Below are positions 1 through 64,000 of a stretch of DNA of 64,000 nucleotides, in pieces. The stretch is from a virus. The notes below the pieces were generated by a model. It saw only the letters and a list, made by a program, of their open reading frames with translations. It did no database searches and was not told the DNA's origin. The stretch is from positions 95,469 through 159,468 of the IMG/VR virus record IMGVR_UViG_3300045988_126619; one strand, 5' to 3'. The position numbers were made by a program, and so were the translations under genes. Position 1 is the stretch's first letter, and each line of letters begins with the position of its first letter.

Positions 1-16
1 AAATTTAAAAGATTTA

Positions 17-382
17 ATGATTAGCATTTCAGAGTTTAAAGTTCAAATGTCTGAAATTATCAAGAACAAAGTAACAAAAGTTATAGTTAAAAATAACGAG
101 CCAGTTGCTGTTATTATGCCGTATGCTGAATACATAGAAAGGGCAAAAGATTCGGAGAGAATAGAACAAATAGGGCAAGATATAACTTTACAAAATGGGG
201 TTCAAATGATGGTGACTGTTTCAAAAGAAAAAGATGACTCACTATGTATCAAAACATATGTAAAGATGAAGACAACAGGGGATTACAAACTTCATTTTAC
301 ACACCATATAGGGATGCCAACAATTGAATCGACTATGACTACAAAAGAAATAATAGAGTTTTATGAAAGGAATGATAATTAG
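17..382 (+). CDS. Phd/YefM-like antitoxin-domain protein
   Basis: 121 aa. The N-terminus ISISEFKVQMSEIIKNKVTKVIVKNNEPVAVIMPYAEYIER fits the Phd/YefM antitoxin pattern. The C-terminal half is unrecognised. Stop TAG 380-382 overlaps or abuts the next ORF. Confidence 0.5.
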   Translation: MISISEFKVQMSEIIKNKVTKVIVKNNEPVAVIMPYAEYIERAKDSERIEQIGQDITLQNGVQMMVTVSKEKDDSLCIKTYVKMKTTGDYKLHFTHHIGMPTIESTMTTKEIIEFYERNDN

Positions 383-1055
383 TATGTTGACAAATGAACA
401 AATATTTTTACTAAAAAAACATAATATAAATCCTTCTAATGTTTTAAAAAACGATAATTTTTTATATAAATACACATATGTTGATATGGGTGGGTTATTG
501 ATATTAGATTTAATTGATATTGACGAACAATATTTTGAAATGATGAAGATAGAAAAAAATATAAAACAAAGAAAATTATATATAGAAAAAGCTTTAAAAA
601 TGGAAGATTTTTCTAAAATATTATTTTTAATGGATAAACCATATCGATTAGAAGTTTATAAACAGATATTTGAAGAGATTCCGAACGAGGATAAATATAA
701 AATCTTTATTGATTTATATGTAAATGCAGAATATGGCTTTAGCAATATTTCTGAGAGTTTTTTAAATGAAATTTTAAAATATAAACCAAAAATAGATTTA
801 AGTGATTTAGATGATGAAATAATAATTTATAGAGGAGAAGGACTTAAATCTAATAAAAAAGAAAAGGCTTTGTCTTGGACTACAGATATAAAAGTTGCTA
901 GATTTTTTGCTAATAGATTTAATAACAATGGCAGAGTTTATAAGGGAAAAGTTAAAAAAGAAAATATAATCGATTTTTTAAGAGATAGGAGTGAAAGTGA
1001 GATTTTAGTACAATATAAATATATATATGATGTGAGAAGAATAGATAATAAATAA
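363..1055 (+). CDS. ADP-ribosyltransferase-domain protein (R-S-ExE type)
   Basis: 230 aa. The C-terminal ~90 aa carry the ordered ART triad IIIYRGEG (Arg), ALSWTTD (S-x-T) and RSESEILV (E-x-E) with usual spacing. The start is ambiguous (ATG 363, 372 or 384). Confidence 0.5.
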   Translation: MKGMIISMLTNEQIFLLKKHNINPSNVLKNDNFLYKYTYVDMGGLLILDLIDIDEQYFEMMKIEKNIKQRKLYIEKALKMEDFSKILFLMDKPYRLEVYKQIFEEIPNEDKYKIFIDLYVNAEYGFSNISESFLNEILKYKPKIDLSDLDDEIIIYRGEGLKSNKKEKALSWTTDIKVARFFANRFNNNGRVYKGKVKKENIIDFLRDRSESEILVQYKYIYDVRRIDNK

Positions 1056-5779: not shown

Positions 5780-6022
5780 ATGAAAAAATATGAATGTGTT
5801 AAAGCATTTTTAGTTCCATTATGTGATGATGATGGTTTCATTATAGAGAATGAAGACAAATATATAGAAGAAGGTTCTATATGGAGTACACCAAAAGATG
5901 AAAATTATAGATTGATAGGAGCAGAAGTTAGACTTGAAAAAAGTGATTGTGAACGGTTAGAATGGTTAGAAATAACTCAAGAAGATTTAGAAGACAAATT
6001 TAGATTGATAGAAGGTGTGTAA
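5780..6022 (+). CDS. hypothetical protein
   Basis: 80 aa with an AAGGGGGA SD. It lies downstream of the promoter at 5719-5747. Confidence 0.45.
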   Translation: MKKYECVKAFLVPLCDDDGFIIENEDKYIEEGSIWSTPKDENYRLIGAEVRLEKSDCERLEWLEITQEDLEDKFRLIEGV

Positions 6023-6023
6023 A

Positions 6024-7457
6024 ATGATAGATAAAGAATTAAATAAAAATATGGAAGTATTAAATATGTTGAGAAAAAGGATTATTATTTTGCCAGAAGT
6101 AAGGCTTATATTAGATAAACTTCACATAAATAATCATAAGGCTTATATTGTGGGAGGTTATGTTAGAGATTCATTGTTAAAGAATCGTATGCCACATGAT
6201 TGTGATATATGCACGTCTGCTACACCACAAGAAATTATGGATATATTTAAAAATTATAAAATAATTCCTACAGGTTTACAACATGGGACAGTAACTATTT
6301 GTATGAAATGGGGCGATTATGAAGTAACTACATTTAGAAAAGATGGGGAATATTTAGATGGTAGACACCCACAAACAATTGATTTTGTTAATGATTTAAA
6401 AGAAGATTTGAGCAGAAGGGATTTTACGATTAATGCGTTAGCTTATAATGAAGAAGAAGGATTAATTGATTATTTTGGAGGAAAGGAAGACCTTGAGAAT
6501 AAAATCATAAGATGTGTAGGAGATGCTGAAAAAAGATTTAAAGAAGATGGATTGAGAATATTAAGAGCATACAGATTCTCTGCACAATTAGGATTTACTA
6601 TAGAATATAATACAAGTAGTATATTAGCATATAAAGGTGTAAAAACAAATATAGATAACGTATCAAGAGAAAGAATAAGAGAAGAATTAAACAAAATTAT
6701 ATTATCTGATAATTCAAGAGAAGTATTGCTTAATATGGTTGATGATGGAATATGTAAAAGTATATTTGGGGATTTTACATTTGAAGATATGATGTTTTTT
6801 AATCAGAATAATCCTTATCACAATAGAACATTACTCAATCATACACTAACTGCCATGACTATTGCTCCACCAATTTTAGAAGTTAGATTGGCATTATTAT
6901 TTCATGATATAGGTAAATTACAAACACAAGCAACTGATGATAAAGGCATTTCTCACTATTATAATCATTCAAAAGTATCAGCAGAATTAGCTTTAAAGTA
7001 TTTAAAAGGATTAAAATATGATAATAAAACAATAGATATGGTTGTTACATTGATTGCAAACCATGATTTTACATTTGATAATTATGATTATATAATTAAG
7101 AAACAATTGAAGAAGCTTCTTAATAAACATGGGGAAGAAATTGTTAAGAATTTAATAATAATTAGAAAATGTGATATATTAGCACAATCAGAAAAGTATT
7201 ATTATGACCGATTAGAAAAAATTTATAAAGTTGAACGTTTACTAAATGATGTTTTAGAAGACCAAGAATGTTTTCAAATTAAAGATTTGGCTATAAACGG
7301 AAATGATTTAATTACAATAGGTTATGAGCAAGGTGTAGAACTTGGGAAAACTTTAAAATATATTGTAGACCTTGTTATAGAAGAACATTTGAATAATGAC
7401 AAAGAAGAATTATTAGAATATGCAAAATTTTTATTAAAAACACTTGACACAAAATAA
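6024..7457 (+). CDS. cca: CCA-adding enzyme (tRNA nucleotidyltransferase) with HD domain
   Basis: Contains the class II nucleotidyltransferase head motifs GGYVRDSLL, DCDI and RRDFTINAL, plus the HD motif LLFHDIGK. I prefer start ATG 6024 (GAAGGTG SD) over the track's GTG 6015. Confidence 0.8.
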   Translation: MIDKELNKNMEVLNMLRKRIIILPEVRLILDKLHINNHKAYIVGGYVRDSLLKNRMPHDCDICTSATPQEIMDIFKNYKIIPTGLQHGTVTICMKWGDYEVTTFRKDGEYLDGRHPQTIDFVNDLKEDLSRRDFTINALAYNEEEGLIDYFGGKEDLENKIIRCVGDAEKRFKEDGLRILRAYRFSAQLGFTIEYNTSSILAYKGVKTNIDNVSRERIREELNKIILSDNSREVLLNMVDDGICKSIFGDFTFEDMMFFNQNNPYHNRTLLNHTLTAMTIAPPILEVRLALLFHDIGKLQTQATDDKGISHYYNHSKVSAELALKYLKGLKYDNKTIDMVVTLIANHDFTFDNYDYIIKKQLKKLLNKHGEEIVKNLIIIRKCDILAQSEKYYYDRLEKIYKVERLLNDVLEDQECFQIKDLAINGNDLITIGYEQGVELGKTLKYIVDLVIEEHLNNDKEELLEYAKFLLKTLDTK

Positions 7458-15886: not shown

Positions 15887-18070
15887 ATGAGAACATTAGT
15901 TTTACTTAGAGGAAGTGCAGGATGTGGCAAATCAACATTTATTAAGGAGCATAAGTTAGAGGACTATACGTTGTCCTCTGACAGTTTTAGATTATTATAT
16001 AGTTCACCTATATTAATGAATGATGGAACACAATCAATTAGTGGAAAACATGAGAAAAAGACATGGGAAACATTATTTAATATCCTAGAATATAGAATGG
16101 AACAAGGGTTATTTACAGTAATAGATGCTACTAATAGTAAGGTTTCTGAAATTAACAAATATAAAAAACTTGCTGAATTTTATAGATATAATATTATTGT
16201 AGTAGATTTTACAGATTTGCCAAGAGAAGAATGTAAGATTAGAAATGCAAATAGAGAACCTAGTTATAAAATAGTTCCAAATGTTGTAATAGATAAATTC
16301 TATGATAGATTTGATAAAAAGGAAAAGTTAAGTGGAGTAACAGTTATTAAACCACATGAATTTGAACAAGCTATAAGGATTACACCTATTAATGTATCTA
16401 ACTATAATGATATTCAAATCATAGGAGATATTCATGGTTGTTATGATGCACTAATGACAATGTTAGAAGGTGGACAATTAAAAGAAGATAGATTATATAT
16501 ATTCACAGGAGATTTTTGTGATAGAGGTATCCAAAATGCAGAAGTGTTAGAATATTTATTCACTATTATGAACAATGATAATGTAATTTTATTAGAAGGA
16601 AACCATGAAAGAGCCTTATGGAGATATGCAAATGATTTATATAGTCAACGAAGACAATTTGAAAAATATACAAAAGAAGAATTAATTAATAAAAATGTTT
16701 CTAAATCAAAAATTAGACATTTATATAGAAGATTAAGGCAAATGGCTTTATTAAAGTTTGATGAAAAGACATTATTTATTTGTCATGGTGGTATTACTAA
16801 TTTATCACAAGATTTACATTTGATTTCAGCAGAACAATTAATTTATGGTGTAGGTAATTATGAAGAAGTTGAAATTATTGATAATATATTTGAATTAAAC
16901 ACAAGTTCTACAACTTATCAGATACATGGACATAGAAATGTTAATAGTAAACCTATTAATATAACACCAAGATGTTTCTGTTTAGAAGATAGAGTAGAAT
17001 TTGGTGGGAATTTAAGAAGTGTAATATTTACACACTCTATAATTAAAACTGTATCAGTAAAGAATGATACATATAAAGATTCAGAATACACAGAGGATAA
17101 AGATATTGTTATAGAGCCAAACATATTAGATAGATTAAGAAGTAGTGAATTAATTAGAGAAGTTAAGTTTGGTAATATTTCATCATTCAATTTTACAAGA
17201 AAAGCTTTTAATAATAAAGAATGGAATAATGAAACAATCAAAGCGAGAGGTTTATATGTAAATACTAATACAAAAGATATAGTTATAAGAAGTTATGATA
17301 AATTCTTTAATGTTAATGAAAGAGAAGAAACACAATTACAGAACCTTTGTAAATCACTTTCTTATCCTGCTACAGCGTATGTTAAGTACAATGGATATCT
17401 TGGTCTAGTTGGTTATGATAACGAATCTGACAAGCTGTTAGTGGCTTCTAAATCACGATTGGATGGAGATTATGCAGACTGGATAAGAGAGATAATAAAT
17501 ACATGGGAAGATGATAAAATTCAATTCATGCAAGATTATGTTAAAAAGAACAAATGTACGCTAGTATTTGAAGTTATTGTTCCAGAACATGATACTCATA
17601 TGATTAAGTATGATAAGTCTGAATTAGTGCTTTTATCCATTGTCAGAAATAATATTGAATTTGAACAGCTACCATATGAAGAAGTAATCGAACTTGGACA
17701 CCGTTTAAATTTAAATTTTAAAGAGAAAGCAATTGTTTTAAATAATAAGGAAGAGTTTTTGTCATGGTATAGAGAAGTTACACAAGAAGACTATATGTAT
17801 AATGGTGAAGATATTGAAGGCTTTGTAATAGAGGATTCTAAAGGATTTATGACAAAAATTAAGTGTAGTTATTATACATTTTGGAAACATATGCGAGCAT
17901 TAGTGGGAAGATATAAAAAACAAGGATATTATATGGATACTTCCAATTTAAATGATAGAGCATTATTATTCTTAGAATTTTTAAAGACATTACCAAAAGA
18001 ACAATTGGAATATGATATCATTACATTAAGAGATATGTTTTACAATTATGTTATTAATAAATTTTTTTAA
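15887..18070 (+). CDS. trifunctional RNA-repair enzyme (polynucleotide kinase / metallophosphatase / RNA-ligase-type adenylyltransferase), bacterial Pnkp-like
   Basis: 727 aa. The kinase has the P-loop GSAGCGKST. The phosphoesterase has GDIHGC, GDFCDRG and GNHE. The nucleotidyltransferase has motifs I KYNGYLG, III LVFEVI, IV IEGFVIED and V MTKIK. Confidence 0.75.
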   Translation: MRTLVLLRGSAGCGKSTFIKEHKLEDYTLSSDSFRLLYSSPILMNDGTQSISGKHEKKTWETLFNILEYRMEQGLFTVIDATNSKVSEINKYKKLAEFYRYNIIVVDFTDLPREECKIRNANREPSYKIVPNVVIDKFYDRFDKKEKLSGVTVIKPHEFEQAIRITPINVSNYNDIQIIGDIHGCYDALMTMLEGGQLKEDRLYIFTGDFCDRGIQNAEVLEYLFTIMNNDNVILLEGNHERALWRYANDLYSQRRQFEKYTKEELINKNVSKSKIRHLYRRLRQMALLKFDEKTLFICHGGITNLSQDLHLISAEQLIYGVGNYEEVEIIDNIFELNTSSTTYQIHGHRNVNSKPINITPRCFCLEDRVEFGGNLRSVIFTHSIIKTVSVKNDTYKDSEYTEDKDIVIEPNILDRLRSSELIREVKFGNISSFNFTRKAFNNKEWNNETIKARGLYVNTNTKDIVIRSYDKFFNVNEREETQLQNLCKSLSYPATAYVKYNGYLGLVGYDNESDKLLVASKSRLDGDYADWIREIINTWEDDKIQFMQDYVKKNKCTLVFEVIVPEHDTHMIKYDKSELVLLSIVRNNIEFEQLPYEEVIELGHRLNLNFKEKAIVLNNKEEFLSWYREVTQEDYMYNGEDIEGFVIEDSKGFMTKIKCSYYTFWKHMRALVGRYKKQGYYMDTSNLNDRALLFLEFLKTLPKEQLEYDIITLRDMFYNYVINKFF

Positions 18071-22746: not shown

Positions 22747-25365
22747 ATGAAAATTAATAAAGAAGGTTTAAGTAACCAAGAAGTAGAACAAAGTAGAGAA
22801 AAATATGGAGCGAATAGACTTCCCGAAAAAGTATATCCTACAATATGGGAAAGAATAACAAATGTTTTTAAAGAAGATGGAATAATGACAATGTTATTTG
22901 TTTTAGCAATATTGGAAGGAATTGAAGCACTAGTATGTAGAGAGATACCTTGGGAATGTATAGGAATCATGACTACAGTTAGTGTAGTAACATTTTTTAC
23001 TATTAATTCAGATTTGAAACAAGAAAAATCATTTAAAGATTTGAAAGCATCTATACAAGAGCCTACAGTTACTGTAATAAGAGAAGGAAGAAAACAGATA
23101 ATTAAACAATCAGACTTAGTAGTTGGTGATATTTGTTTACTTAATAATGGAGAAAAAGCTTATGCTGATGGATTGATAATTGAACAAACCGATTTTAAAA
23201 TTTCAAATGCAGAACTTAATGGTGAATCAGATGAAGTAGAAGTTGATACATTTAATTATGTGGAAAATTCAGAAGTTGAATTTACAGATGATGTTTCAAA
23301 ACAAGAAGGATTTATTAATAGTGGAGCATTAATTGTTAATGGTAAAGCTACTATGGGAGTTGTAAGAGTTGGAGAAAACACAGAAAGTGGTAAAGCTTTA
23401 GTAAATGTTACTGAAATGAAAACGCCTTTGCTTGAAAAACTTGATACTTTAACAGAACAAATCACAAGATATGGTGCAGTTGGTGCAACATTAATGTTCG
23501 CTATCAATTTTGGAGTGATTGTTTTATTAAAAGGTGGATTATCATACTTCACAAGTACAGCAGTTCTTAGTATAGGATTAGATATAGTTGCTTGTTTAAT
23601 GGTTGCATTATCAATATTTAGTGCATCTGCCCCAGAAGGTCTTCCATTTGTTATTAACTTAGTTCTTTCAGCAAATGTTAACAAGATGAAAAAACACAAC
23701 GTTTTATTAAAAAATGTTAAAAAAGGTGAAACAAGTGGTTCTTTATCAATCTTATTTAGTGACAAAACAGGAACAATGACAAAGAATATAATGTCAATAG
23801 TTGAATTTACAGATGGAACAGGAAAAACACTTAATCGTGGCGAAATTGAAAATTCAAAATACAAAGAATTAATAGATAGAAGTATTGTAATGAGTTCAGA
23901 TTCATATTATGACGAGAATGGAGATTTAATTGGTGGTAATGGTACTGATAGAGCATTTAGTAAGTTTGTTGGAGCAGATTTATTTAAACAATATTCAAAT
24001 AGTACAGTAATTAAATCACAACCATTCAATTCTAAGAATAAGTATAACGCAGTTCAATTAGATGGATACACTATATATAAAGGTGCAGGAGAAATATTAG
24101 TAAACAATTCTAAAAACTTAATAAATACTGATTGTTGGGTAAGAGGAATTGAAGAAGAAGATAGAGAAAATCTACAATCTACAATGGATAGAATGATGAA
24201 TAAGGCTGAAAGAGTTTTAGCTATCGCAATTTCTAAACAACCATTAGTTGACAATGAACTTCCAAGCGACTTAACATTATTAGCGGTATTTGGTATTAGA
24301 GATGAAATAAGAGAAAGTACACCAACAGCTATTGAAAATTTAAATAATGCAGGTGTTCAAGTTGTAATGGTAACAGGAGATAATATTAAAACTGCTGATG
24401 CTATTGCAAAAGAAATCGGATTATTAAAAGATGGAGATTTAAGTTTTACAAATGATATATTAATGGATATGACCGATGAAGAAATCGCTTCAATATTACC
24501 TAAATTAAAAGTAGTTGGTAGAGCGAAACCAGATACTAAACGTAGATTAAATCATATCGCTCAAAATAACGGTTATGTTACAGGAATGTGCGGAGATGGA
24601 GTTAATGATGCTCCTGCCTTAATGCAAGCTGATATTGGATTTGCTATGGGTTCTGGAACAGATGTTGCAAAAGATGCAGGTGACGTAGTTATCTTAGATA
24701 ATAACTTAGCATCAATTGAATATGGTGTTAAGAGTGGTAGACAAATATTTAAGAATATTCAAAAGTTCTTAAAGTATCAATTAGCAATTAATGTTGGTAT
24801 TGTTATAACTCCTATTTTAGCTTCATTATGTGGTGTAACTAAATCATTAGCAGTAACAAGTATTCTATGGATTAATGCAATAATGGATACATTAGCATCA
24901 CTTGCATTTAGTGGTGAACCTTGTGAAGATAGTGTGATGAAAGAAAAACCTATCTCAAGAACAGCTAACATAATTAATAAAGACATGATGATTCAAATAG
25001 CAACAACTGGTTTATACTTTATAGGAACTGGATTATTTATGCTAACAAGTGATGTAATGGGTAATTTATTTGGTGAAAAACAAACAACAGCTTATTTCTC
25101 ATTATTTGTAATGATAGCGATATTCAATGGTTTTAATGTAAGAACAGCATCAATTAATTGTTTAAAAGACATTAAAAAGAATCCAAGATTTATTAAGATT
25201 ATGGCTTTAATTACAGTATTACAAGTGTTATTAGTAAGTTTTGGTGGTAAAATATTTGATGTTATGCCAATGAACCTTATGGAATGGTTAATTGTAACAG
25301 GTATTGCAGTATTAATTATCCCAATAGATTTAATTAGAAAAATGATTATGAATAAAACAAAATAA
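22747..25365 (+). CDS. P-type ATPase, type II (Ca2+-ATPase-like) cation pump
   Basis: 872 aa. It has the N-terminal LSNQEVEQSREKYGANRLPEK, the actuator motif NGES, the TM4 motif PEGLP, the phosphorylation site SDKTGTMT, the nucleotide/hinge motifs VMVTGDN and GDGVNDAPAL, and about 10 hydrophobic segments. Confidence 0.85.
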   Translation: MKINKEGLSNQEVEQSREKYGANRLPEKVYPTIWERITNVFKEDGIMTMLFVLAILEGIEALVCREIPWECIGIMTTVSVVTFFTINSDLKQEKSFKDLKASIQEPTVTVIREGRKQIIKQSDLVVGDICLLNNGEKAYADGLIIEQTDFKISNAELNGESDEVEVDTFNYVENSEVEFTDDVSKQEGFINSGALIVNGKATMGVVRVGENTESGKALVNVTEMKTPLLEKLDTLTEQITRYGAVGATLMFAINFGVIVLLKGGLSYFTSTAVLSIGLDIVACLMVALSIFSASAPEGLPFVINLVLSANVNKMKKHNVLLKNVKKGETSGSLSILFSDKTGTMTKNIMSIVEFTDGTGKTLNRGEIENSKYKELIDRSIVMSSDSYYDENGDLIGGNGTDRAFSKFVGADLFKQYSNSTVIKSQPFNSKNKYNAVQLDGYTIYKGAGEILVNNSKNLINTDCWVRGIEEEDRENLQSTMDRMMNKAERVLAIAISKQPLVDNELPSDLTLLAVFGIRDEIRESTPTAIENLNNAGVQVVMVTGDNIKTADAIAKEIGLLKDGDLSFTNDILMDMTDEEIASILPKLKVVGRAKPDTKRRLNHIAQNNGYVTGMCGDGVNDAPALMQADIGFAMGSGTDVAKDAGDVVILDNNLASIEYGVKSGRQIFKNIQKFLKYQLAINVGIVITPILASLCGVTKSLAVTSILWINAIMDTLASLAFSGEPCEDSVMKEKPISRTANIINKDMMIQIATTGLYFIGTGLFMLTSDVMGNLFGEKQTTAYFSLFVMIAIFNGFNVRTASINCLKDIKKNPRFIKIMALITVLQVLLVSFGGKIFDVMPMNLMEWLIVTGIAVLIIPIDLIRKMIMNKTK

Positions 25366-26398: not shown

Positions 26399-26944
26399 AT
26401 GAAAAAAATATTAGTAGTAATTGATATGCAAAATGATTTTATAACAGGAAGTTTAGGAACAAAGGAAGCACAAGAAATTGTTCCAAAAGTAATTGATAAG
26501 ATTAAAGAATATGATAAATATGAAAACAGTCTTATATATGCAACACAAGATACTCATTATATAGGTTATTTAAAAACTCTTGAAGGATTAAAATTACCAA
26601 TAGAACATTGTATAAAAGATACAGAAGGATGGGAAATACAAAAAGATATATTAAAAGAATTAAAAGAAAGAAAAGCTTGTATATCAGAGAAAATAACATT
26701 TGGAGATATAAATTTAGCAGAGAATTTTTCTGGATTAAATTGTGTTAATCATGATGTTGAAATAGAATTAATTGGGTTATGCACAGATATATGTGTTATA
26801 TCTAACGCATTAACAATTAAAGCTTACGTTCCAGAAGTAAAAATTATAGTAGATGCAAGTTGTTGTGCAGGTGTAACACCACAAAGTCATAAAAATGCAC
26901 TAGAAGCTATGAAGATGTGTCAAGTAGAAATTATTAATGAATAG
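26399..26944 (+). CDS. pncA: nicotinamidase (isochorismatase-family cysteine hydrolase)
   Basis: 181 aa. It has VVIDMQNDF (Asp), TQDTHY and PIEHCIKDTEGWEI (metal/HC motif), and LIGLCTDICV (nucleophile Cys). Confidence 0.7.
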   Translation: MKKILVVIDMQNDFITGSLGTKEAQEIVPKVIDKIKEYDKYENSLIYATQDTHYIGYLKTLEGLKLPIEHCIKDTEGWEIQKDILKELKERKACISEKITFGDINLAENFSGLNCVNHDVEIELIGLCTDICVISNALTIKAYVPEVKIIVDASCCAGVTPQSHKNALEAMKMCQVEIINE

Positions 26945-26958
26945 GAGATGTATAGATT

Positions 26959-27783
26959 ATGGTAAAAGTAAATGGAGAAGAACACAATTATTATTTATTC
27001 CCTAATAATGAATTAAAGGTATCACCTATTAGATATGGTAATTATGTTGAAATTAAAGATGGCGATGATATAGAAGTAGAATTAATATATGAAAATTCAA
27101 TAGACCTTGTTCACCTTATATTTGTAAAGAAATTTTTAGATGAAGCCTATCCACATAGTTGTGTAGATTTAGTTATGAAATATATTCCATACTCAAGAAT
27201 GGACAGGGAAACACCTTTTCAAATGTTTACTTGTAAATATTTATGTCAATTAATAAATGATTTATGTTTTAGTTCTGTAACAGTATTAGACCCTCATTCA
27301 AATGTATGTGTGGGAGCATTAGAACGTGTTAAGCAAATAGATTTATCATATTATGTTAAACAAGTATTAGACTACGAAAGAGTGAAAGAAGGAACTTATA
27401 TAGATGCTATATTCCTTCCAGACGTAGGTGCATATAAAAAGTATACAGAAGTATTGGATAATGTAAAGTTACCTAAATTTTGGGGGAATAAACATCGTGA
27501 CTTAAACAATGGAGCAATAACTGATTATGATATAATTGGAGATATTGATGTTAATGGTAAAAATATACTTATAGTTGATGATATATGCGTTAAGGGATTT
27601 ACCACATTATTTGCCTCAAAGAAATTAAAAGAACTAGGAGCAAATAAAGTCATTTTCTATTGTTCTCATTGTGAAGATGCTATTCATAGTGGACAATTAT
27701 TAAAAACAGATTATGTAGATAGAATATATACAACTGATAGCATGAAATTTGATGAACATAATAAAATAATTAAATTATATTAG
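26959..27783 (+). CDS. ribose-phosphate pyrophosphokinase homologue (Prs-like; candidate ADPR-PP synthetase)
   Basis: 274 aa. KYIPYSRMDRE, VLDPHSN and the PRPP-loop ILIVDDICVKGFT match the Prs family. The N-terminal region is shorter and more divergent than housekeeping Prs. Confidence 0.65.
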   Translation: MVKVNGEEHNYYLFPNNELKVSPIRYGNYVEIKDGDDIEVELIYENSIDLVHLIFVKKFLDEAYPHSCVDLVMKYIPYSRMDRETPFQMFTCKYLCQLINDLCFSSVTVLDPHSNVCVGALERVKQIDLSYYVKQVLDYERVKEGTYIDAIFLPDVGAYKKYTEVLDNVKLPKFWGNKHRDLNNGAITDYDIIGDIDVNGKNILIVDDICVKGFTTLFASKKLKELGANKVIFYCSHCEDAIHSGQLLKTDYVDRIYTTDSMKFDEHNKIIKLY

Positions 27784-27807
27784 GAGAAAGTATTATATCA
27801 AAATATG

Positions 27808-27836
27808 TTGACATAAAATAAATGATAGTATATAAT
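27808..27836 (+). promoter_or_regulatory. sigma-A-type promoter with the conserved element as spacer
   Basis: TTGACA at 27808-27813, spacer TAAAATAAATGATAGTA, TATAAT at 27831-27836. Confidence 0.7.
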
Positions 27837-27902
27837 AAATAATGTAGAGAGCAGTTAGTAAATCTGCTCCTACAATATAAATAAATGAAAGAGAGTGATT
27901 AT

Positions 27903-29375
27903 ATGAAAACAAACCCAATGTTATTGATTGATTTTTATAAGGCTTGTCATAGTGATATGTTACCAAAAGGAATAACTAAATCAGTCAGTTATTTTACACC
28001 TAGAATGAAAAGAGTTGAAAGATGGGACAATGTAGTTATGTTCGGTCTACAAGGATTTATTAAAACTTATTTAATTGATTATTTTAACGAAAATTTCTTT
28101 AATCAAACAACAGAAAAGGCAGTATTTGAATATGAAAGAGTTCTTAAATATTCTTTAGGGGAAGATTCTTTTAGTAGTGAAAAAGTAAGAAAACTTCATA
28201 AATTAGGTTATTTACCAATTGAAATTTTAGCAATTAAAGAAGGAACAAAAGTACCTATAAAGATACCTATGTTTGCAATAACAAATACTCATGATGATTT
28301 TGCATGGCTACCACAAGCCTTAGAATCACTTATATCTGCTGAAATGTGGCATCCTATGATATCAGCTACAGTTGGAGCAACTTATAGAGATATAGTAAAT
28401 AAATATTATGATATTTCATGTGATGATGATATTCCAAGAGCAAAAGCATTAGGAGATTTTAGCTTTAGAGGACAAGAATGTTTACAATCAGCAATTAAGA
28501 GTTCAGCAGGTTGGTCACTATCATTCTTAAATTCAGCTACAGTTCCTGCTATACCATATTTAGAAGATAATTATAATTGTAATTGCATAACAGAACCAGT
28601 TTTATTTGGGGCAGTTTCTACAGAACATTCTGTGATGTGTTCTAATTATTCTGTAGATGGGGATGAAGAAACATTAATCAGAAGATTATTAACTGAATTA
28701 TATCCAAATGCTTCATTTAGTGCTGTTTTAGATTCTTATGATTATTGGAGAATTGTTAAAGAAGTTCTTCCTAAATTAAAAGAAGAAATACTTAACCACA
28801 ATGGATGTTTCTTAATAAGGGGAGATAGTGGGGATTGTGTAGAAGTTGTTACACAAACTGTATTTGAGTTATGGAAGACATTTGGAGGAACTGTTAATAG
28901 TAAAGGCTATAAAGTATTAGACCCACACGTAAAAGCTATTTATGGTGATTCTATAACAGTTCAAAGATGTGAAGAAATATATAAGATACTTATAGAAAAT
29001 GGATTTGCTTGTTCAAATGTAGCACTTGGTGTTGGCTCATTCTCAATGCAAGCAATTGAAGAAGATGGAATACTTAAACCATTTACTAGAGATACTTATG
29101 GAATGGCTATTAAAGCTACTTACATGGAAATAAATGGTGAATCATATCCAATATTTAAGAATCCAAAGGATGGAGGATTTAAGAAATCGCAAAAAGGCTG
29201 TTGTAGTGTATTCTTTGATGAAGATGGGGAAATGGTTTATGCAGATGGATTAACTTGGGAAGAAGCTTGTGGTGATGAAGAAAACTTATTACAACCAGTA
29301 TTTAAAGATGGTCAGTTAGTTAGGGAACAATCATTACAAGAAATAAGAAATATATTACATGAAGGAGGATTTTAA
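27903..29375 (+). CDS. nicotinamide phosphoribosyltransferase-family protein (NadV/Namat-like)
   Basis: 490 aa from ATG 27903. NPMLLIDFYKACH, VMFGLQ, LPIEILAIKEGTKVP, AWLPQALESL..MWHP and GDFSFRG follow the Nampt/NadV pattern. It has its own promoter at 27808-27836. Confidence 0.7.
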   Translation: MKTNPMLLIDFYKACHSDMLPKGITKSVSYFTPRMKRVERWDNVVMFGLQGFIKTYLIDYFNENFFNQTTEKAVFEYERVLKYSLGEDSFSSEKVRKLHKLGYLPIEILAIKEGTKVPIKIPMFAITNTHDDFAWLPQALESLISAEMWHPMISATVGATYRDIVNKYYDISCDDDIPRAKALGDFSFRGQECLQSAIKSSAGWSLSFLNSATVPAIPYLEDNYNCNCITEPVLFGAVSTEHSVMCSNYSVDGDEETLIRRLLTELYPNASFSAVLDSYDYWRIVKEVLPKLKEEILNHNGCFLIRGDSGDCVEVVTQTVFELWKTFGGTVNSKGYKVLDPHVKAIYGDSITVQRCEEIYKILIENGFACSNVALGVGSFSMQAIEEDGILKPFTRDTYGMAIKATYMEINGESYPIFKNPKDGGFKKSQKGCCSVFFDEDGEMVYADGLTWEEACGDEENLLQPVFKDGQLVREQSLQEIRNILHEGGF

Positions 29376-29378
29376 AAT

Positions 29379-29681
29379 ATGAAATTAGGTCTTATTTATG
29401 ATTATTTTGGAACTGTTAAGTTTGGTTCTATTGAAGTAGAAGAAAAACCAAAGACATATAAAACAATAGGTGGGGAATCAGTACCTAGAGTATATAGAAG
29501 TGTTATAAATAAAGATATGATTAATAAAGTGTATGATGATGTTGTTCTTATATATGATTGTTCTAAAGAAGAAGCTATTAAAATATGGAATGAACATTTT
29601 GATAGAAAAATTAATACTAAAAAAGAATATTTTGAGAAAGAAGTAGAACGTTTAGAAGGTTTAATTATAAAGGAGGAATAA
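29379..29681 (+). CDS. hypothetical protein inside the NAD module
   Basis: 100 aa with a GAAGGAGGA SD. It is tightly packed between the Nampt-like and NadE genes. Confidence 0.45.
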   Translation: MKLGLIYDYFGTVKFGSIEVEEKPKTYKTIGGESVPRVYRSVINKDMINKVYDDVVLIYDCSKEEAIKIWNEHFDRKINTKKEYFEKEVERLEGLIIKEE

Positions 29682-29682
29682 T

Positions 29683-30420
29683 ATGTATAAATTTGATGCA
29701 AAGGAAACAGCAAGACAATTAATAGAATGGATAAAAGAATATTTTGAAAATAATGGGGATAAAAATACTAAAGCTATCATTGGTATTTCTGGTGGAAAAG
29801 ATAGTTCTATAGTAGCAGGATTATGTGTTGAAGCACTAGGTAAGGATAGAGTAATTGGTGTAAAGATGCCACAAGGAGAACAAGAAGATATAGAATATGC
29901 AGAGGATATTATTGATTTCTTAGGCATAAAATCATATGAAATAAATATTGAGGATTCAGTTTTTGGAGTATATAGAGAATTAGATTTTGAGAAAATACCT
30001 AGAAACTCAATAGTAAATTCCAATACACCTGCAAGAATAAGAATGACTGTATTATATGCAGTTAGTGGAGCATTGGGTGGTAGAGTAGCAAATACATGTA
30101 ATCTATCAGAAGATTATGTCGGTTATGCTACAAAGTTTGGTGATGGAGCAGGAGATTTTTCACCATTATCTAATTTAACTGTAACAGAGGTTAAAGCTAT
30201 TGGAAGAGAAATAGGTATTCCAGATTATTTAATAGATAAGACACCTATAGATGGACTTTGTGGACTATCAGATGAAGATAATTTAGGTTTTTCTTATGAT
30301 ACTTTAGATAAGTATATTAGAACTGGTATATGTGAAGATGAAGAAACTAAGAGAAGAATAGATGCTATGCACAAAAATAATTTGCATAAGTTATTACCTA
30401 TGCCATCATTTAAATTATAA
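29683..30420 (+). CDS. nadE: NH3-dependent NAD+ synthetase
   Basis: 245 aa. It has the PP-loop IIGISGGKDSS and later ANTCNLSEDYVGYATKFGDGAGDFSPL, both typical of NadE. Confidence 0.8.
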   Translation: MYKFDAKETARQLIEWIKEYFENNGDKNTKAIIGISGGKDSSIVAGLCVEALGKDRVIGVKMPQGEQEDIEYAEDIIDFLGIKSYEINIEDSVFGVYRELDFEKIPRNSIVNSNTPARIRMTVLYAVSGALGGRVANTCNLSEDYVGYATKFGDGAGDFSPLSNLTVTEVKAIGREIGIPDYLIDKTPIDGLCGLSDEDNLGFSYDTLDKYIRTGICEDEETKRRIDAMHKNNLHKLLPMPSFKL

Positions 30421-52306: not shown

Positions 52307-52759
52307 ATGAAAATTAATATACAAAAGGGAAATCTTTTTGATTTAGATAAACGATATGCTTTGGCTCATTGTGTCAGTTTAGATTGTTCCAATCCTAAAT
52401 CATGGGGTATGGGAATTGCTACAGAATTTAAAAAACGTTTTAAAGGTATGAAACATTATTGTGCAAGAGTAATAGAAAATAATAACTTATCTTATCCTGT
52501 TATAATACCTTATTGTGAAAATGATAGGTGTATTTTTAATCTTATAACAAAGAGAGTGTATTATGGAAAACCAACATATGCCACAATTACTAAATGTATT
52601 CATGATATGGCATCAATGTGTAAACAATTTGATATCAAATATCTAGGAATATATAAACTTGGTTGTAACCTAGATAAATTACAATGGGGTAAAGTAAAAG
52701 AAATCATTGAACAAGAATTTAAAGATATAGACATAGAAATAGAAGTTAGATATTTATAA
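52307..52759 (+). CDS. macrodomain protein, TARG1/Poa1p-like (ADP-ribose hydrolase type)
   Basis: 150 aa. The pattern KGNLFDLDKRYALAHCVSLDCSNPKSWGMGIATEFKKRFKG matches the TARG1/OARD1-like macrodomain N-terminal pattern (G.LF....LAHC.S.D..MG.GIA..FKK.F). Confidence 0.6.
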   Translation: MKINIQKGNLFDLDKRYALAHCVSLDCSNPKSWGMGIATEFKKRFKGMKHYCARVIENNNLSYPVIIPYCENDRCIFNLITKRVYYGKPTYATITKCIHDMASMCKQFDIKYLGIYKLGCNLDKLQWGKVKEIIEQEFKDIDIEIEVRYL

Positions 52760-62290: not shown

Positions 62291-64000
62291 TTATATTAGA
62301 ATGTTAACTTTTACATTTGTTAAATTACTTTGTTTAGCTGTAACAGAACATGAATTTGTATTGATTGCTATATCTACATCCGTTTCACCTAATTTGTGCC
62401 AATCTCCTACTTTATCATATAAAATACTTAGATTTTTTAATACAACATTATCGGCAGAAGAAGGTCTATATAAAACAAATGCAAATCTAATATGTTTATT
62501 AGTTAATATTGTATTATAGTCAATATTTGGAATATCTGTTGCTATTCCATTATTCCATATTTCATCTTTGAATTGATTCCATTTATTTTTTTCCGAGTCC
62601 GATAATTGAGAATATTGTTTAACTTTATTATCATCTGTTAATGGACAAGTATTTGTTAAAACATCCCAACTAGAACCGTTCCAAGTTTTCCATGTAACAC
62701 CATTATCATTACTTATGACATACTTTATATTACCATTAGCTGTTTTTGTAACATCTAAAACAAAATTGTGAATAGTTGAAGCTTTTATTGTCGATAAATT
62801 TTGATTAGAAATTATCAATTCTTTATTATTTTTTATACCATTTATAGTATACGTCCTTTCTTCTGACGATATAATTGAAAAATTACTAAATTTATCTATT
62901 GGTTTAAAAGTTTCACCATTTATAGTTACATCTTTTAATAAATCATTTGAAGAAAATCCATATGTTTCTAAATCTCTATTAATATCAGTTATAATTATTT
63001 CATTATACATTTTTGAAGAATCATCATAATTGTCCTCTAATATTGAATAATATTTATTATTAGATTTTAATAATAAATATATAGTTCTTATAATGTCATA
63101 AATATCATGGAGTCTATTTGCATTATCTAAATTAGGTATCAATGTAGGTGTAGTTTTACTAGCAGTATTACCTAATCCTAATTGACCAAAGGTATTATGT
63201 CCAGATGATTTTACAGCACCATCATTTAATAAGAATAACGTATGATAAGAACCACATGATATTTGTTCCACATTGTCTAAGTTGGATATTAATGTAGGTA
63301 TATTTCTATCTGTAGCATCACCTAATCCTAATTGACCATTACCATTTTGTCCACAAGATTTTGCAGTACAATCATTTAATAAGAATACTGTATGATAGTA
63401 TCCACATGATATTTGTTTTACATTATCTAAATCAGATATTAATGTAGGTATATTTCTACTAGTAATAGCACCTAATCCTAATTGACCATAGCTATTTTCC
63501 CCACATACCTTTACAGCACCATCATTTAATAAGAATAATGTATGAAGACCACCACATGATATTTGTTTTACATTATCTAAATTAGATATCAATATAGGTG
63601 TTAATCTATTAGTAGCATCACCTAATCCTAATTGACCATTACCATTTTGTCCACAAGATTTTGCAGTACAATCATTTAATAAGAATACTGTATGAGAATA
63701 TCCACATGATGCTTGTTTTACGTTATTTAAATCAGATATTAATGTAGGTGTTAATCTATTAGTAGTGTCGCCTAATCCTAATTGACCATAGCTATTTCGT
63801 CCACATGCCTTTACATTGCCATCATTTAATAAGAAAATAGTATGATAAGCACCACATGATATTTGTTTTACGTTATTTAAATTAGGTATTAATATAGGTG
63901 TTAATCTATTAGTAGTGTCGCCTAATCCTAATTGACCATAGCTATTTTCCCCACATACCTTTACAGTGCCATCATTTAATAAGAATACTGTATGATAGTA
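62291..64000 (-). CDS. RCC1-repeat (beta-propeller) protein with distinct C-terminal domain; tail-fibre/receptor-binding candidate (5' end outside window)
   Basis: The frame stays open upstream of the track's TTG 63592 all the way to position 64000. It has at least 5.5 tandem 50-aa RCC1-type repeats (..NVKQISCG.YHT.FLLNDG..K.CG.N..GQLGLG......PTLI..). A ~330-aa non-repetitive C-terminus follows. Confidence 0.6.
   Translation of the reverse strand, partial: YYHTVFLLNDGTVKVCGENSYGQLGLGDTTNRLTPILIPNLNNVKQISCGAYHTIFLLNDGNVKACGRNSYGQLGLGDTTNRLTPTLISDLNNVKQASCGYSHTVFLLNDCTAKSCGQNGNGQLGLGDATNRLTPILISNLDNVKQISCGGLHTLFLLNDGAVKVCGENSYGQLGLGAITSRNIPTLISDLDNVKQISCGYYHTVFLLNDCTAKSCGQNGNGQLGLGDATDRNIPTLISNLDNVEQISCGSYHTLFLLNDGAVKSSGHNTFGQLGLGNTASKTTPTLIPNLDNANRLHDIYDIIRTIYLLLKSNNKYYSILEDNYDDSSKMYNEIIITDINRDLETYGFSSNDLLKDVTINGETFKPIDKFSNFSIISSEERTYTINGIKNNKELIISNQNLSTIKASTIHNFVLDVTKTANGNIKYVISNDNGVTWKTWNGSSWDVLTNTCPLTDDNKVKQYSQLSDSEKNKWNQFKDEIWNNGIATDIPNIDYNTILTNKHIRFAFVLYRPSSADNVVLKNLSILYDKVGDWHKLGETDVDIAINTNSCSVTAKQSNLTNVKVNILI
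63105..64000 (-). repeat. 150-bp in-frame tandem repeats (RCC1 blades), at least 6 copies, continuing past the window edge
   Basis: The landmark CCTAATCCTAATTGACC recurs at 63171, 63321, 63471, 63621, 63771 and 63921 (period 150). Long near-identical stretches link non-adjacent copies. Confidence 0.85.

Follow-up and report, generated by a model that had tools for sequence, protein, structure and literature searches.

The genes at the locus and the motifs of ORF2

The window considered here, by which we mean the whole stretch of 64,000 nucleotides (nt) taken from the IMG/VR virus record IMGVR_UViG_3300045988_126619 (positions 95,469 to 159,468), begins with two adjoining open reading frames (ORFs): ORF1, which encodes a Phd/YefM-like protein, and ORF2, which encodes a putative mono-ADP-ribosyltransferase (ART) with catalytic residues of the R-S-ExE kind. 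The original prediction had proposed that the two form a toxin-antitoxin-like or effector-chaperone pair, or else that ORF2 is a host-modifying enzyme in the manner of T4 Alt and Mod. The element that carries them is a large gut phage of Clostridia type, about 155-159 kb long and found in gut metagenomes, with a G+C content of 27%, which is also that of the window. Contigs of 155-159 kb encoding proteins identical to ORF1 and ORF2 occur in gut and environmental metagenomes, and the window contains replication and lysis genes of phage type (DNA polymerase, DnaB, primase, NrdD, a sigma factor and an endolysin). A megablast search of the GenBank phages with the first 6 kb of the window gave no match. 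ORF2 is the third gene of a unit that lies on one strand in a non-structural region and consists of a sigma70-like promoter, a DUF2786 gene, ORF1 and ORF2. On the whole we lean towards the view that ORF2 is a compact, probably active and host-modifying R-S-ExE mono-ART resembling ModA and ModB of T4, expressed from this operon, and that ORF1 is a separate protein and not its dedicated antitoxin; the catalytic activity, the class of target, the timing of expression and the role of ORF1 are parts of this view that we infer.

The longest reading of ORF2 (363-1055, 230 amino acids (aa)) starts from an alternative upstream ATG at position 363. The gene callers and the aligned N-termini of homologues designate ATG 384 as the most likely start, which yields a protein of 223 aa. 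Since this ATG lies 1 nt past the stop codon of ORF1 (TAG, 380-382), both genes abut, as one of the two arrangements first envisaged had it, and neither the overlap nor the length of 230 aa is retained. The triad YRG ... SWT ... ESE, initially read in canonical order at the C-terminus, proved to be near-invariant and to sit on the expected strands. Thus, R150 (codon 831-833), G151, S164, W165, F179 and E204 are invariant in 26 homologues and again in 55 long-form relatives. Among 146 representatives sharing at most 50% pairwise identity, R150, G151, W165 and E204 reach 100%, S164 and E206 99%, Y149 97% and T166 92% (S in 8%), and two further arginines, R178 and R202, are conserved. The N-terminal region possesses a conserved motif of its own, DKPYR...Y...EYGF (alignments A1 and A4). 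As judged from these alignments, the YRG/SWT/ExE triad of ORF2 is not there by chance.

Predicted fold, relatives and likely chemistry of ORF2

The ART fold expected of ORF2 is seen, together with its triad, in confident AlphaFold2 models, whose predicted local distance difference test (pLDDT) score amounts to 92.2 for the full-length protein and to 89.7 for residues 134-223 alone. Both models display the canonical strand order of ARTs: strand 1 bears R150, strand 2 bears SWT and strand 5 bears ExE, and the C-terminal 80 residues make up an ART core with very short loops. In a Foldseek search with the model of the whole protein, the N-terminal domain diluted the matches, and the C-terminal domain was re-modelled alone; when this domain was compared with the PDB, ART-fold proteins accounted for 17 of the top 18 matches. 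The ART matches comprise CNFy domain 4, Tpt1/KptA, EcPltA, IcmQ, TreTu, typhoid toxin PltA and PARP12, with template-modelling (TM) scores normalised to the query of 0.44-0.51 (0.31 for PltA). The CNFy match was assigned to domain 4 because the 1-704 fragment and the D4-5 fragment were both matched, and the lowest root-mean-square deviation (3.6-3.8 Å, TM 0.5) was obtained for the Tpt1/KptA structures. As every single E-value is weak, it is the consistency of these matches that argues for the fold. The high rank of CNFy domain 4 and IcmQ in the structural comparison, along with an unusually small core and its very short loops, might suggest that ORF2 is a catalytically dead ART-like domain that binds only NAD+ (nicotinamide adenine dinucleotide) or a partner, as was proposed for IcmQ or CNFy domain 4. 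We hold this to be extremely improbable, for the R, the S and both glutamates are kept at 99-100% in the 146 representatives, a pattern of an active site under purifying selection.

The relationship with T4 enzymes was approached by hhalign, in which an alignment of ModA and ModB (from the GenBank record) with their homologues was set against 109 members of the ORF2 family. The score of 30.0 (P 5.9e-4) comes with a register that places YRG on YRG/WRG and SWT on SFT/SAS, and ExE on EQE under relaxed extension; none of 150 controls with column-shuffled ModA/ModB alignments reached 30.0 (mean 13.3, maximum 24.1), and reversed and unrelated controls returned P values of 0.03-0.26. The helices that precede strand 1 of ORF2 are paired with the N-terminal helices of ModB. 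An alignment of 26 sequences compared by the same program with a single ModA or ModB sequence was not significant. Like ModA and ModB, ORF2 is a protein of about 200-223 aa in which N-terminal helices are followed by [YW]RG, then by S-x-[ST] with a helix and by ExE, and it is encoded among non-structural genes of a large phage. Unlike them, it has an S-to-E spacing of 40 instead of 67-72, matches neither PF26816, the Pfam family of ModA/ModB, nor any other Pfam family, and bears an additional N-terminal alpha/beta unit and the DKPYR/EYGF motif, both specific to the ORF2 family. We identify ORF2 as an ART because of its fold, of the invariant triad at canonical strands and of the profile match to ModA/ModB. 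Of the possibilities first put forward, the one that fits best is an enzyme that modifies the host as T4 Alt/Mod do.

Several points weigh against this reading and deserve to be stated together. The probability returned by hhalign is only 29%, and the R-to-S spacing is 14 in ORF2 as against 24-26 in ModA/ModB. No single Foldseek match is significant (E-values 0.13-2; best E 0.13 at a TM of about 0.5). No ART family of Pfam, be it ADPrib_exo_Tox, ART, ART-PolyVal, PF26816 or another, was found at E≤1 with 26 members of the ORF2 family, nor at E≤1e-3 with 55 long-form members. Finally, some relatives are fused to HD, NT5C, HAD or kinase domains, from which one might suspect that the substrate is a nucleotide or nucleic acid, or that the adduct is processed, instead of plain modification of a protein. 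More generally, ORF2 and the profiles of its family retrieved nothing meaningful from Pfam, NCBIfam, PADLOC and the PDB sequences, and the sole family match of ORF2 is PHROG 4776, of 'unknown function'.

If ORF2 is indeed a ModA/ModB-like enzyme, an early or middle operon would yield the DUF2786 protein, the Phd-like protein and the ART; the latter would bind NAD+, supplied by the host or replenished by the phage, through R150, S164 and the glutamates of ExE, and after infection would move ADP-ribose onto a host macromolecule, thereby contributing to host takeover as T4 ModA and ModB do. The ExE motif usually goes with arginine specificity on proteins, hence a protein arginine would be the most likely target. 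The NAD+ supply genes and the macrodomain of the phage, described below, would make sense in the same economy.

The family to which ORF2 belongs is very large, phage-dominated and currently unannotated (PHROG 4776 and relatives). In a census of 1.84 billion representatives, the domain profile found 7,770 representative clusters (at 50% identity) at E≤1e-3 and 2,717 at E≤1e-10, and the domain is present in at least 140 IMG/VR phage contigs; among the cultured phages of GenBank, tblastn found a relative only in two Lysinibacillus Herelleviridae, where it is annotated 'mRNA catabolic process'. Among the top 150 representatives, 146 new sequences were counted by length: 77 measure 211-300 aa, with the domain mostly C-terminal, 40 measure 421-520 aa, that is about one quarter of these best 146, and 8 do not exceed 150 aa. 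Most members stand alone. A C-terminal HD phosphohydrolase domain, placed after the ART-like domain, was recognised in 33 of 55 mostly long (>300 aa) forms, and single fusions to NT5C, to HAD and to a Zeta-toxin-like kinase occur among the same 55; the R, the S and ExE stay invariant in the fusions (e.g. P0078 and P0080; alignment A4). Because all these partners handle nucleotides or phosphates, they fit an NAD+-using enzyme. The most frequent neighbour of the family is a gene of about 283 aa (phrog_15500) located directly upstream in 33 of 60 environmental ART-like loci (L017:2982-3830, L020:2991-3833 and 31 other environmental phage loci), where it overlaps the start of the ART-like gene by 4 nt. 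Its product matched nothing in Pfam or the PDB and is unrelated to DUF2786; it could be a functional partner. At L103:2367-2798, a 143-aa ORF directly downstream of an ART-like homologue contains the motifs IYRC...SWTKD...HEQEVL and matches the ART-like domain profile weakly (E 5e-4 in a set of 8 sequences), and may be a tandem, divergent and minimal ART paralogue.

A second reading gives ORF2 another function, in which it would be an ART-fold enzyme acting on a non-protein substrate (RNA or DNA ends or bases, nucleotides, a small molecule), or an NAD+ hydrolase, with a role in RNA repair, nucleic-acid modification or the metabolism of an ADP-ribose signal. The low deviation from Tpt1/KptA, the fusions to HD and to the other three domains, the additional conserved arginines R178 and R202, and the presence in the phage of RNA-repair genes (for a CCA-adding enzyme and for an RNA ligase fused to a kinase and a phosphatase) along with a macrodomain are all in its favour. 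We nevertheless consider it unlikely, since the pattern of conservation follows the R-S-ExE clade and not the R-H-R-R tetrad of Tpt1, the sole link at the level of sequence leads to the protein-modifying ModA/ModB, no phosphoesterase is fused to ORF2 itself, and ExE is typically arginine-specific.

Two memberships were considered and rejected. Tpt1/KptA proteins have a two-lobe architecture and an R-H-R-R catalytic tetrad; the similarity of ORF2 to them is structural only. The invariant residues of ORF2 are R, G, S, W, F and two E, and no His is conserved. ORF2 resembles the ParT/RES toxins (as in ParST, which targets Prs) in being a small enzyme of the ART superfamily and a predicted user of NAD+, and no match to RES (PF08808) was found with Pfam or PADLOC. 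In RES proteins, the S and the E of the R-S-E clade are replaced by Y and N (PMC9503650), unlike in ORF2, where the triad keeps the classical S and E. Moreover, the PRPS-like gene of the phage lies 26 kb away in an NAD+ salvage cluster. Membership of ORF2 in RES/ParT was discarded as the catalytic residues do not fit.

A bolder proposal would take the ORF2 family for a major undescribed branch of phage R-S-ExE ARTs whose core is exceptionally small, endowed with HD-dependent two-step chemistry or acting on nucleotides or nucleic acids, and restrained in the clade of the window by a Phd-fold partner. If this were true, the two steps would be ADP-ribosylation followed by phosphodiester processing as in SidE, and a Phd fold together with an ART would represent a new antitoxin-ART combination. 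The SidE family of Legionella unites an R-S-ExE mono-ART and a phosphodiesterase on one polypeptide, and the HD-fused relatives of ORF2 resemble it by analogy only, in that an ART and a phosphohydrolase-type domain share one polypeptide; the HD domain is absent from ORF2 itself. We rate this proposal as a long shot and describe ORF2 as a phage R-S-ExE ART of a known kind, whose family curated resources have left unannotated. The lead that we find most intriguing comes from the HD-fused relatives, whose chemistry could be unusual. For a huge family of phage 'hypothetical proteins', a function, that of a ModA/ModB-like R-S-ExE ART, can now be assigned and tested; both ADP-ribosylation and the metabolism of NAD+ occupy a central place in phage-host conflict.

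Table 1. Features of the window, with positions numbered from its first nucleotide
Feature	Position	Strand	Remarks
ORF1, Phd/YefM-like two-domain protein	1..382	+	true start codon 4 nt before window position 1; 128 aa
Phd/YefM antitoxin-type N-terminal domain of ORF1	20..166	+	residues 2-50 of the 121-aa reading
Conserved C-terminal domain of ORF1	167..379	+	consensus GQDITLxNGV...IKTYxKMKTSGDYKLHFT...P...T.T.EE
ORF2, putative R-S-ExE mono-ADP-ribosyltransferase, 223 aa	384..1055	+	gene callers, conservation, model, profile match
N-terminal region of ORF2	384..776	+	small alpha/beta unit (aa 1-45) and helical bundle (aa 48-131); AlphaFold2 model
Minimal ART core of ORF2, aa 145-220	816..1043	+	beta1, beta2, alpha, beta3, beta4, beta5, beta6; DSSP of models
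Y149-R150-G151-E152, putative NAD-binding arginine motif, strand 1	828..839	+	conservation; aligns with YRG/WRG of T4 ModB/ModA
S164-W165-T166, strand 2, equivalent of STS motif	873..881	+	followed by helix A172..F175..R178; aligns with SFT/SAS of ModB/ModA
E204-S-E206, putative ExE catalytic motif, start of strand 5	993..1001	+	aligns with EQE of ModA/ModB under relaxed extension
Isochorismatase/nicotinamidase-like	26399-26944	+	immediately upstream of PRPS-like gene
PRPS-like (Prs homologue)	26959-27783	+	phrog_619 at 6e-62
NAMPT/NAPRTase-like	27885-29375	+	immediately downstream of PRPS-like gene
NadE, NAD synthase	29683-30420	+	after a 100-aa ORF
TARG1/OARD1-like macrodomain	52307-52759	+	PDB 4j5r (human OARD1 structure), E 3.4e-21

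ORF1 and its relation to ORF2

ORF1 had been described as a 121-aa protein with a Phd/YefM-type N-terminal domain; the domain stands and the length does not. The ORF at 17-382 is a reading cut by the edge of the window, in which ATG 17 corresponds to the internal Met8. In the full contigs the N-terminal sequence begins MKNLKDLMISISEF and is preceded by an AAGGAG ribosome-binding site, and the homologues measure 124-146 aa at full length and have the N-terminus MKNLxxLM in common; since the full contigs and all homologues carry this extension, the 121-aa reading is an artefact of the window edge. The N-terminal domain scored 29.0 bits with TIGR01552 (cut-off 20.8), and truncated ORF1 matched Pfam PF02604 with 26.3 bits (E 6.3e-6), slightly below the gathering score of 29.8. 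PF02604 was also matched by the homologues in L099 and L100, where the match is not marked as weak, and the PHROG 'antitoxin' family phrog_2268 was matched by ORF1 at 2.8e-4. The C-terminal domain, of about 70 aa, matched no known family and is as conserved as the N-terminal one across 25 homologues. Over its full length, the family alignment (A2) contains 20 invariant columns with a mean column identity of 53%. A search of the PDB sequences with the profile of this alignment found none, YefM and Phd included, and scans with the family reached no more than 2 viral and 2 genomic loci. ORF1 belongs to a distinct phage family of two-domain proteins with a Phd/YefM fold. Its most likely role is that of an independent DNA-binding regulator or of an orphan antitoxin-like (anti-defence) factor, rather than of an antitoxin dedicated to the ART.

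Fic/Doc genes recur near the Phd-like and ART-like families without adjoining them: a Doc-like gene (motif HSMNDGNKRIG; L096:3131-3508, Clostridium tagluense) lies two genes upstream of a Phd-like gene, and a Fic-domain gene (L005:4152-4841, C. botulinum) two genes upstream of an ART-like gene.

The proposed coupling of ORF1 and ORF2 calls for a comparison of gene orders. A Phd-like gene directly followed by an ART-like gene was met in 2 of 11 distinct Phd-like contexts, and the order DUF2786, Phd-like, ART-like is confined to the phage of the window and to L099, a relative from the Hadza gut (74-84% identity), in which the ORF1-ORF2 junction measures 0 nt as compared with 1 nt in the window. 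In L087 the order is permuted into ART-like, DUF2786, a gap of 201 nt, Phd-like and a 316-aa helix-turn-helix (HTH) protein. From the ART side, 86 loci with 60 distinct ART proteins were assembled, the clade of the window included, and a hidden Markov model of the Phd-like family matched none of the 82 loci outside this clade. The gene upstream of the C. botulinum ART-like homologue is an unrelated one of 75 aa, and the nearest homologues of ORF2 outside the clade (58% identity, 223-aa subtype) sit behind a DNA methylase or small unrelated ORFs. Downstream of the other Phd-like genes we encountered a membrane protein, DUF4259, HTH proteins, a coiled-coil protein and small ORFs; elsewhere a convergent PD-(D/E)XK gene is found, or no co-directional gene directly downstream, and in one context a 401-aa ORF stands behind a truncated Phd-like copy that matches residues 1-60 only. 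The C-terminal domain of the Phd-like proteins is conserved whatever the downstream gene. In classical type II toxin-antitoxin families, the C-terminal part of the antitoxin tracks its toxin.

As to expression, the sole strong sigma70-like site (TTGACC, 17 nt, TG-TATAAT; 11 of 12 matches plus the TG; L001:6843-6871) lies upstream of the DUF2786 gene, which is separated from ORF1 by 28 nt. Consensus scans revealed no promoter or operator of its own directly upstream of ORF1; a search for an operator palindrome at the operon promoter met only weak inverted repeats in AT-rich DNA, and no terminator was found downstream of the unit. In three phages, the Phd-like gene comes after a DUF2786/DUF7168 gene (L001:6901-7584, L087:2083-2799 and L099:1789-2472), which for the phage of the window is located just outside the window on its upstream side; these two may be the more stable pair.

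Should ORF1 and ORF2 nevertheless constitute a type II toxin-antitoxin or addiction module, or an inhibitor-enzyme pair, the Phd-like protein would silence the ART until degraded or displaced, with the purpose, for example, of stabilising a plasmid-prophage or of timing ART activity. Such a pair would agree with the Phd/YefM N-terminal domain of ORF1, with the antitoxin-first order and the tight junction, with the retention of this junction in one relative and with the reunion of the three genes in a third phage. P1 Phd-Doc offers a precedent for addiction in a plasmid-prophage. Two observations speak against keeping ORF1 and ORF2 apart: the 0-1 nt junction shared with L099 is compatible with translational coupling and a functional link within the clade, and two tyrosine-recombinase (integrase-family) genes upstream of the window make a plasmid-prophage lifestyle in need of an addiction module possible. 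ART toxins are, besides, known from toxin-antitoxin systems, a few of them in phages (PMC9503650). We still find the pair quite unlikely. The adjacency is not conserved: it is seen in 2 of the 11 Phd-like contexts and at no other ART-like locus out of about 60, the order is permuted in L087, and most ART-family members are alone. In addition, the C-terminal domain of the Phd-like protein, with which a toxin would be expected to bind, is conserved whichever gene lies next to it, and ORF1 has no promoter or operator directly upstream. As far as gene order can tell, the Phd-like and ART-like families assort independently and a toxin-antitoxin pair is unlikely. The reading of the gene order as a Phd antitoxin with an ART toxin thus fails in comparative genomics, which saves or redirects experimental effort.

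As in P1 Phd-Doc or YefM-YoeB, ORF1 has a Phd/YefM-type N-terminal domain and is located immediately upstream of a potentially toxic enzyme. Unlike in these systems, ORF2 as the partner belongs to neither the Doc/Fic nor the RelE/ParE proteins, and where a short tail specific to the toxin would be usual, ORF1 has a conserved C-terminal domain of about 70 aa; moreover, the two genes do not stay linked among relatives, and ORF1 lacks a promoter or operator of its own. The phage systems described by Iyer et al. in 2022, namely ART-ARG, p0068-Dmd, Mod-like-Dmd and RES-HTH, likewise associate a phage ART with an antitoxin-type gene and provide a precedent for a Mod-like ART as toxin (PMC9503650). 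The word 'Phd' is absent from the main text of that paper, hence no antitoxin of Phd type is described there, and ORF1-ORF2 fails the conservation test by which those systems were defined (PMC9503650).

NAD+ genes and other features of the phage

The Prs homologue that the original prediction had connected with ORF2, by way of the ParT toxins that target Prs, does exist (Table 1), and the connection is unlikely: the gene belongs to an NAD+ salvage cluster and ORF2 bears no RES/ParT signature. Our analysis of the gene context predicts that 26399-30420 of the window represents an NAD+ salvage or NARP1-like layout, combined with Preiss-Handler-type enzymes. In NARP1, a phage pathway for the reconstitution of NAD+ that consists of Adps and Namat, a PRPS-like and a NAMPT-like gene are juxtaposed in this way (PMC12774641, PMC13586617). 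The Prs homologue as target or decoy of the ART was rejected, since the NAD+ salvage context fits better and ORF2 is devoid of RES/ParT features. The TARG1-like macrodomain also announced at the outset was confirmed by its match to a PDB structure; Pfam gave no match for it, and PHROGs names its family 'phosphatase'. The NAD+ genes and the macrodomain lie 26-52 kb from ORF2 and nothing links them specifically to it. It is common for ARTs, macrodomains and NAD+ synthesis to occur together in large phages (PMC7824862, PMC9503650).

The RNA-repair genes of the window, at 6015-7457 and 15887-18070 on the plus strand, encode a CCA-adding enzyme that contains an HD domain, as well as a protein of 727 aa in which a P-loop kinase is fused to a calcineurin-like phosphatase and to a T4-type RNA ligase, and an RlaP nucleotidyltransferase is additionally present on the related contig L002. 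A full-length P-type cation-transporting ATPase of 872 aa with E1-E2_ATPase, Cation_ATPase_N and Cation_ATPase_C domains is encoded at 22747-25365 (+); phages do not usually carry such an auxiliary gene. Genes for RCC1-repeat proteins lie in the window at 62291-63592 (-) and also at L100:4265-5414, about 1.35 kb downstream of the Phd-like gene of L100.

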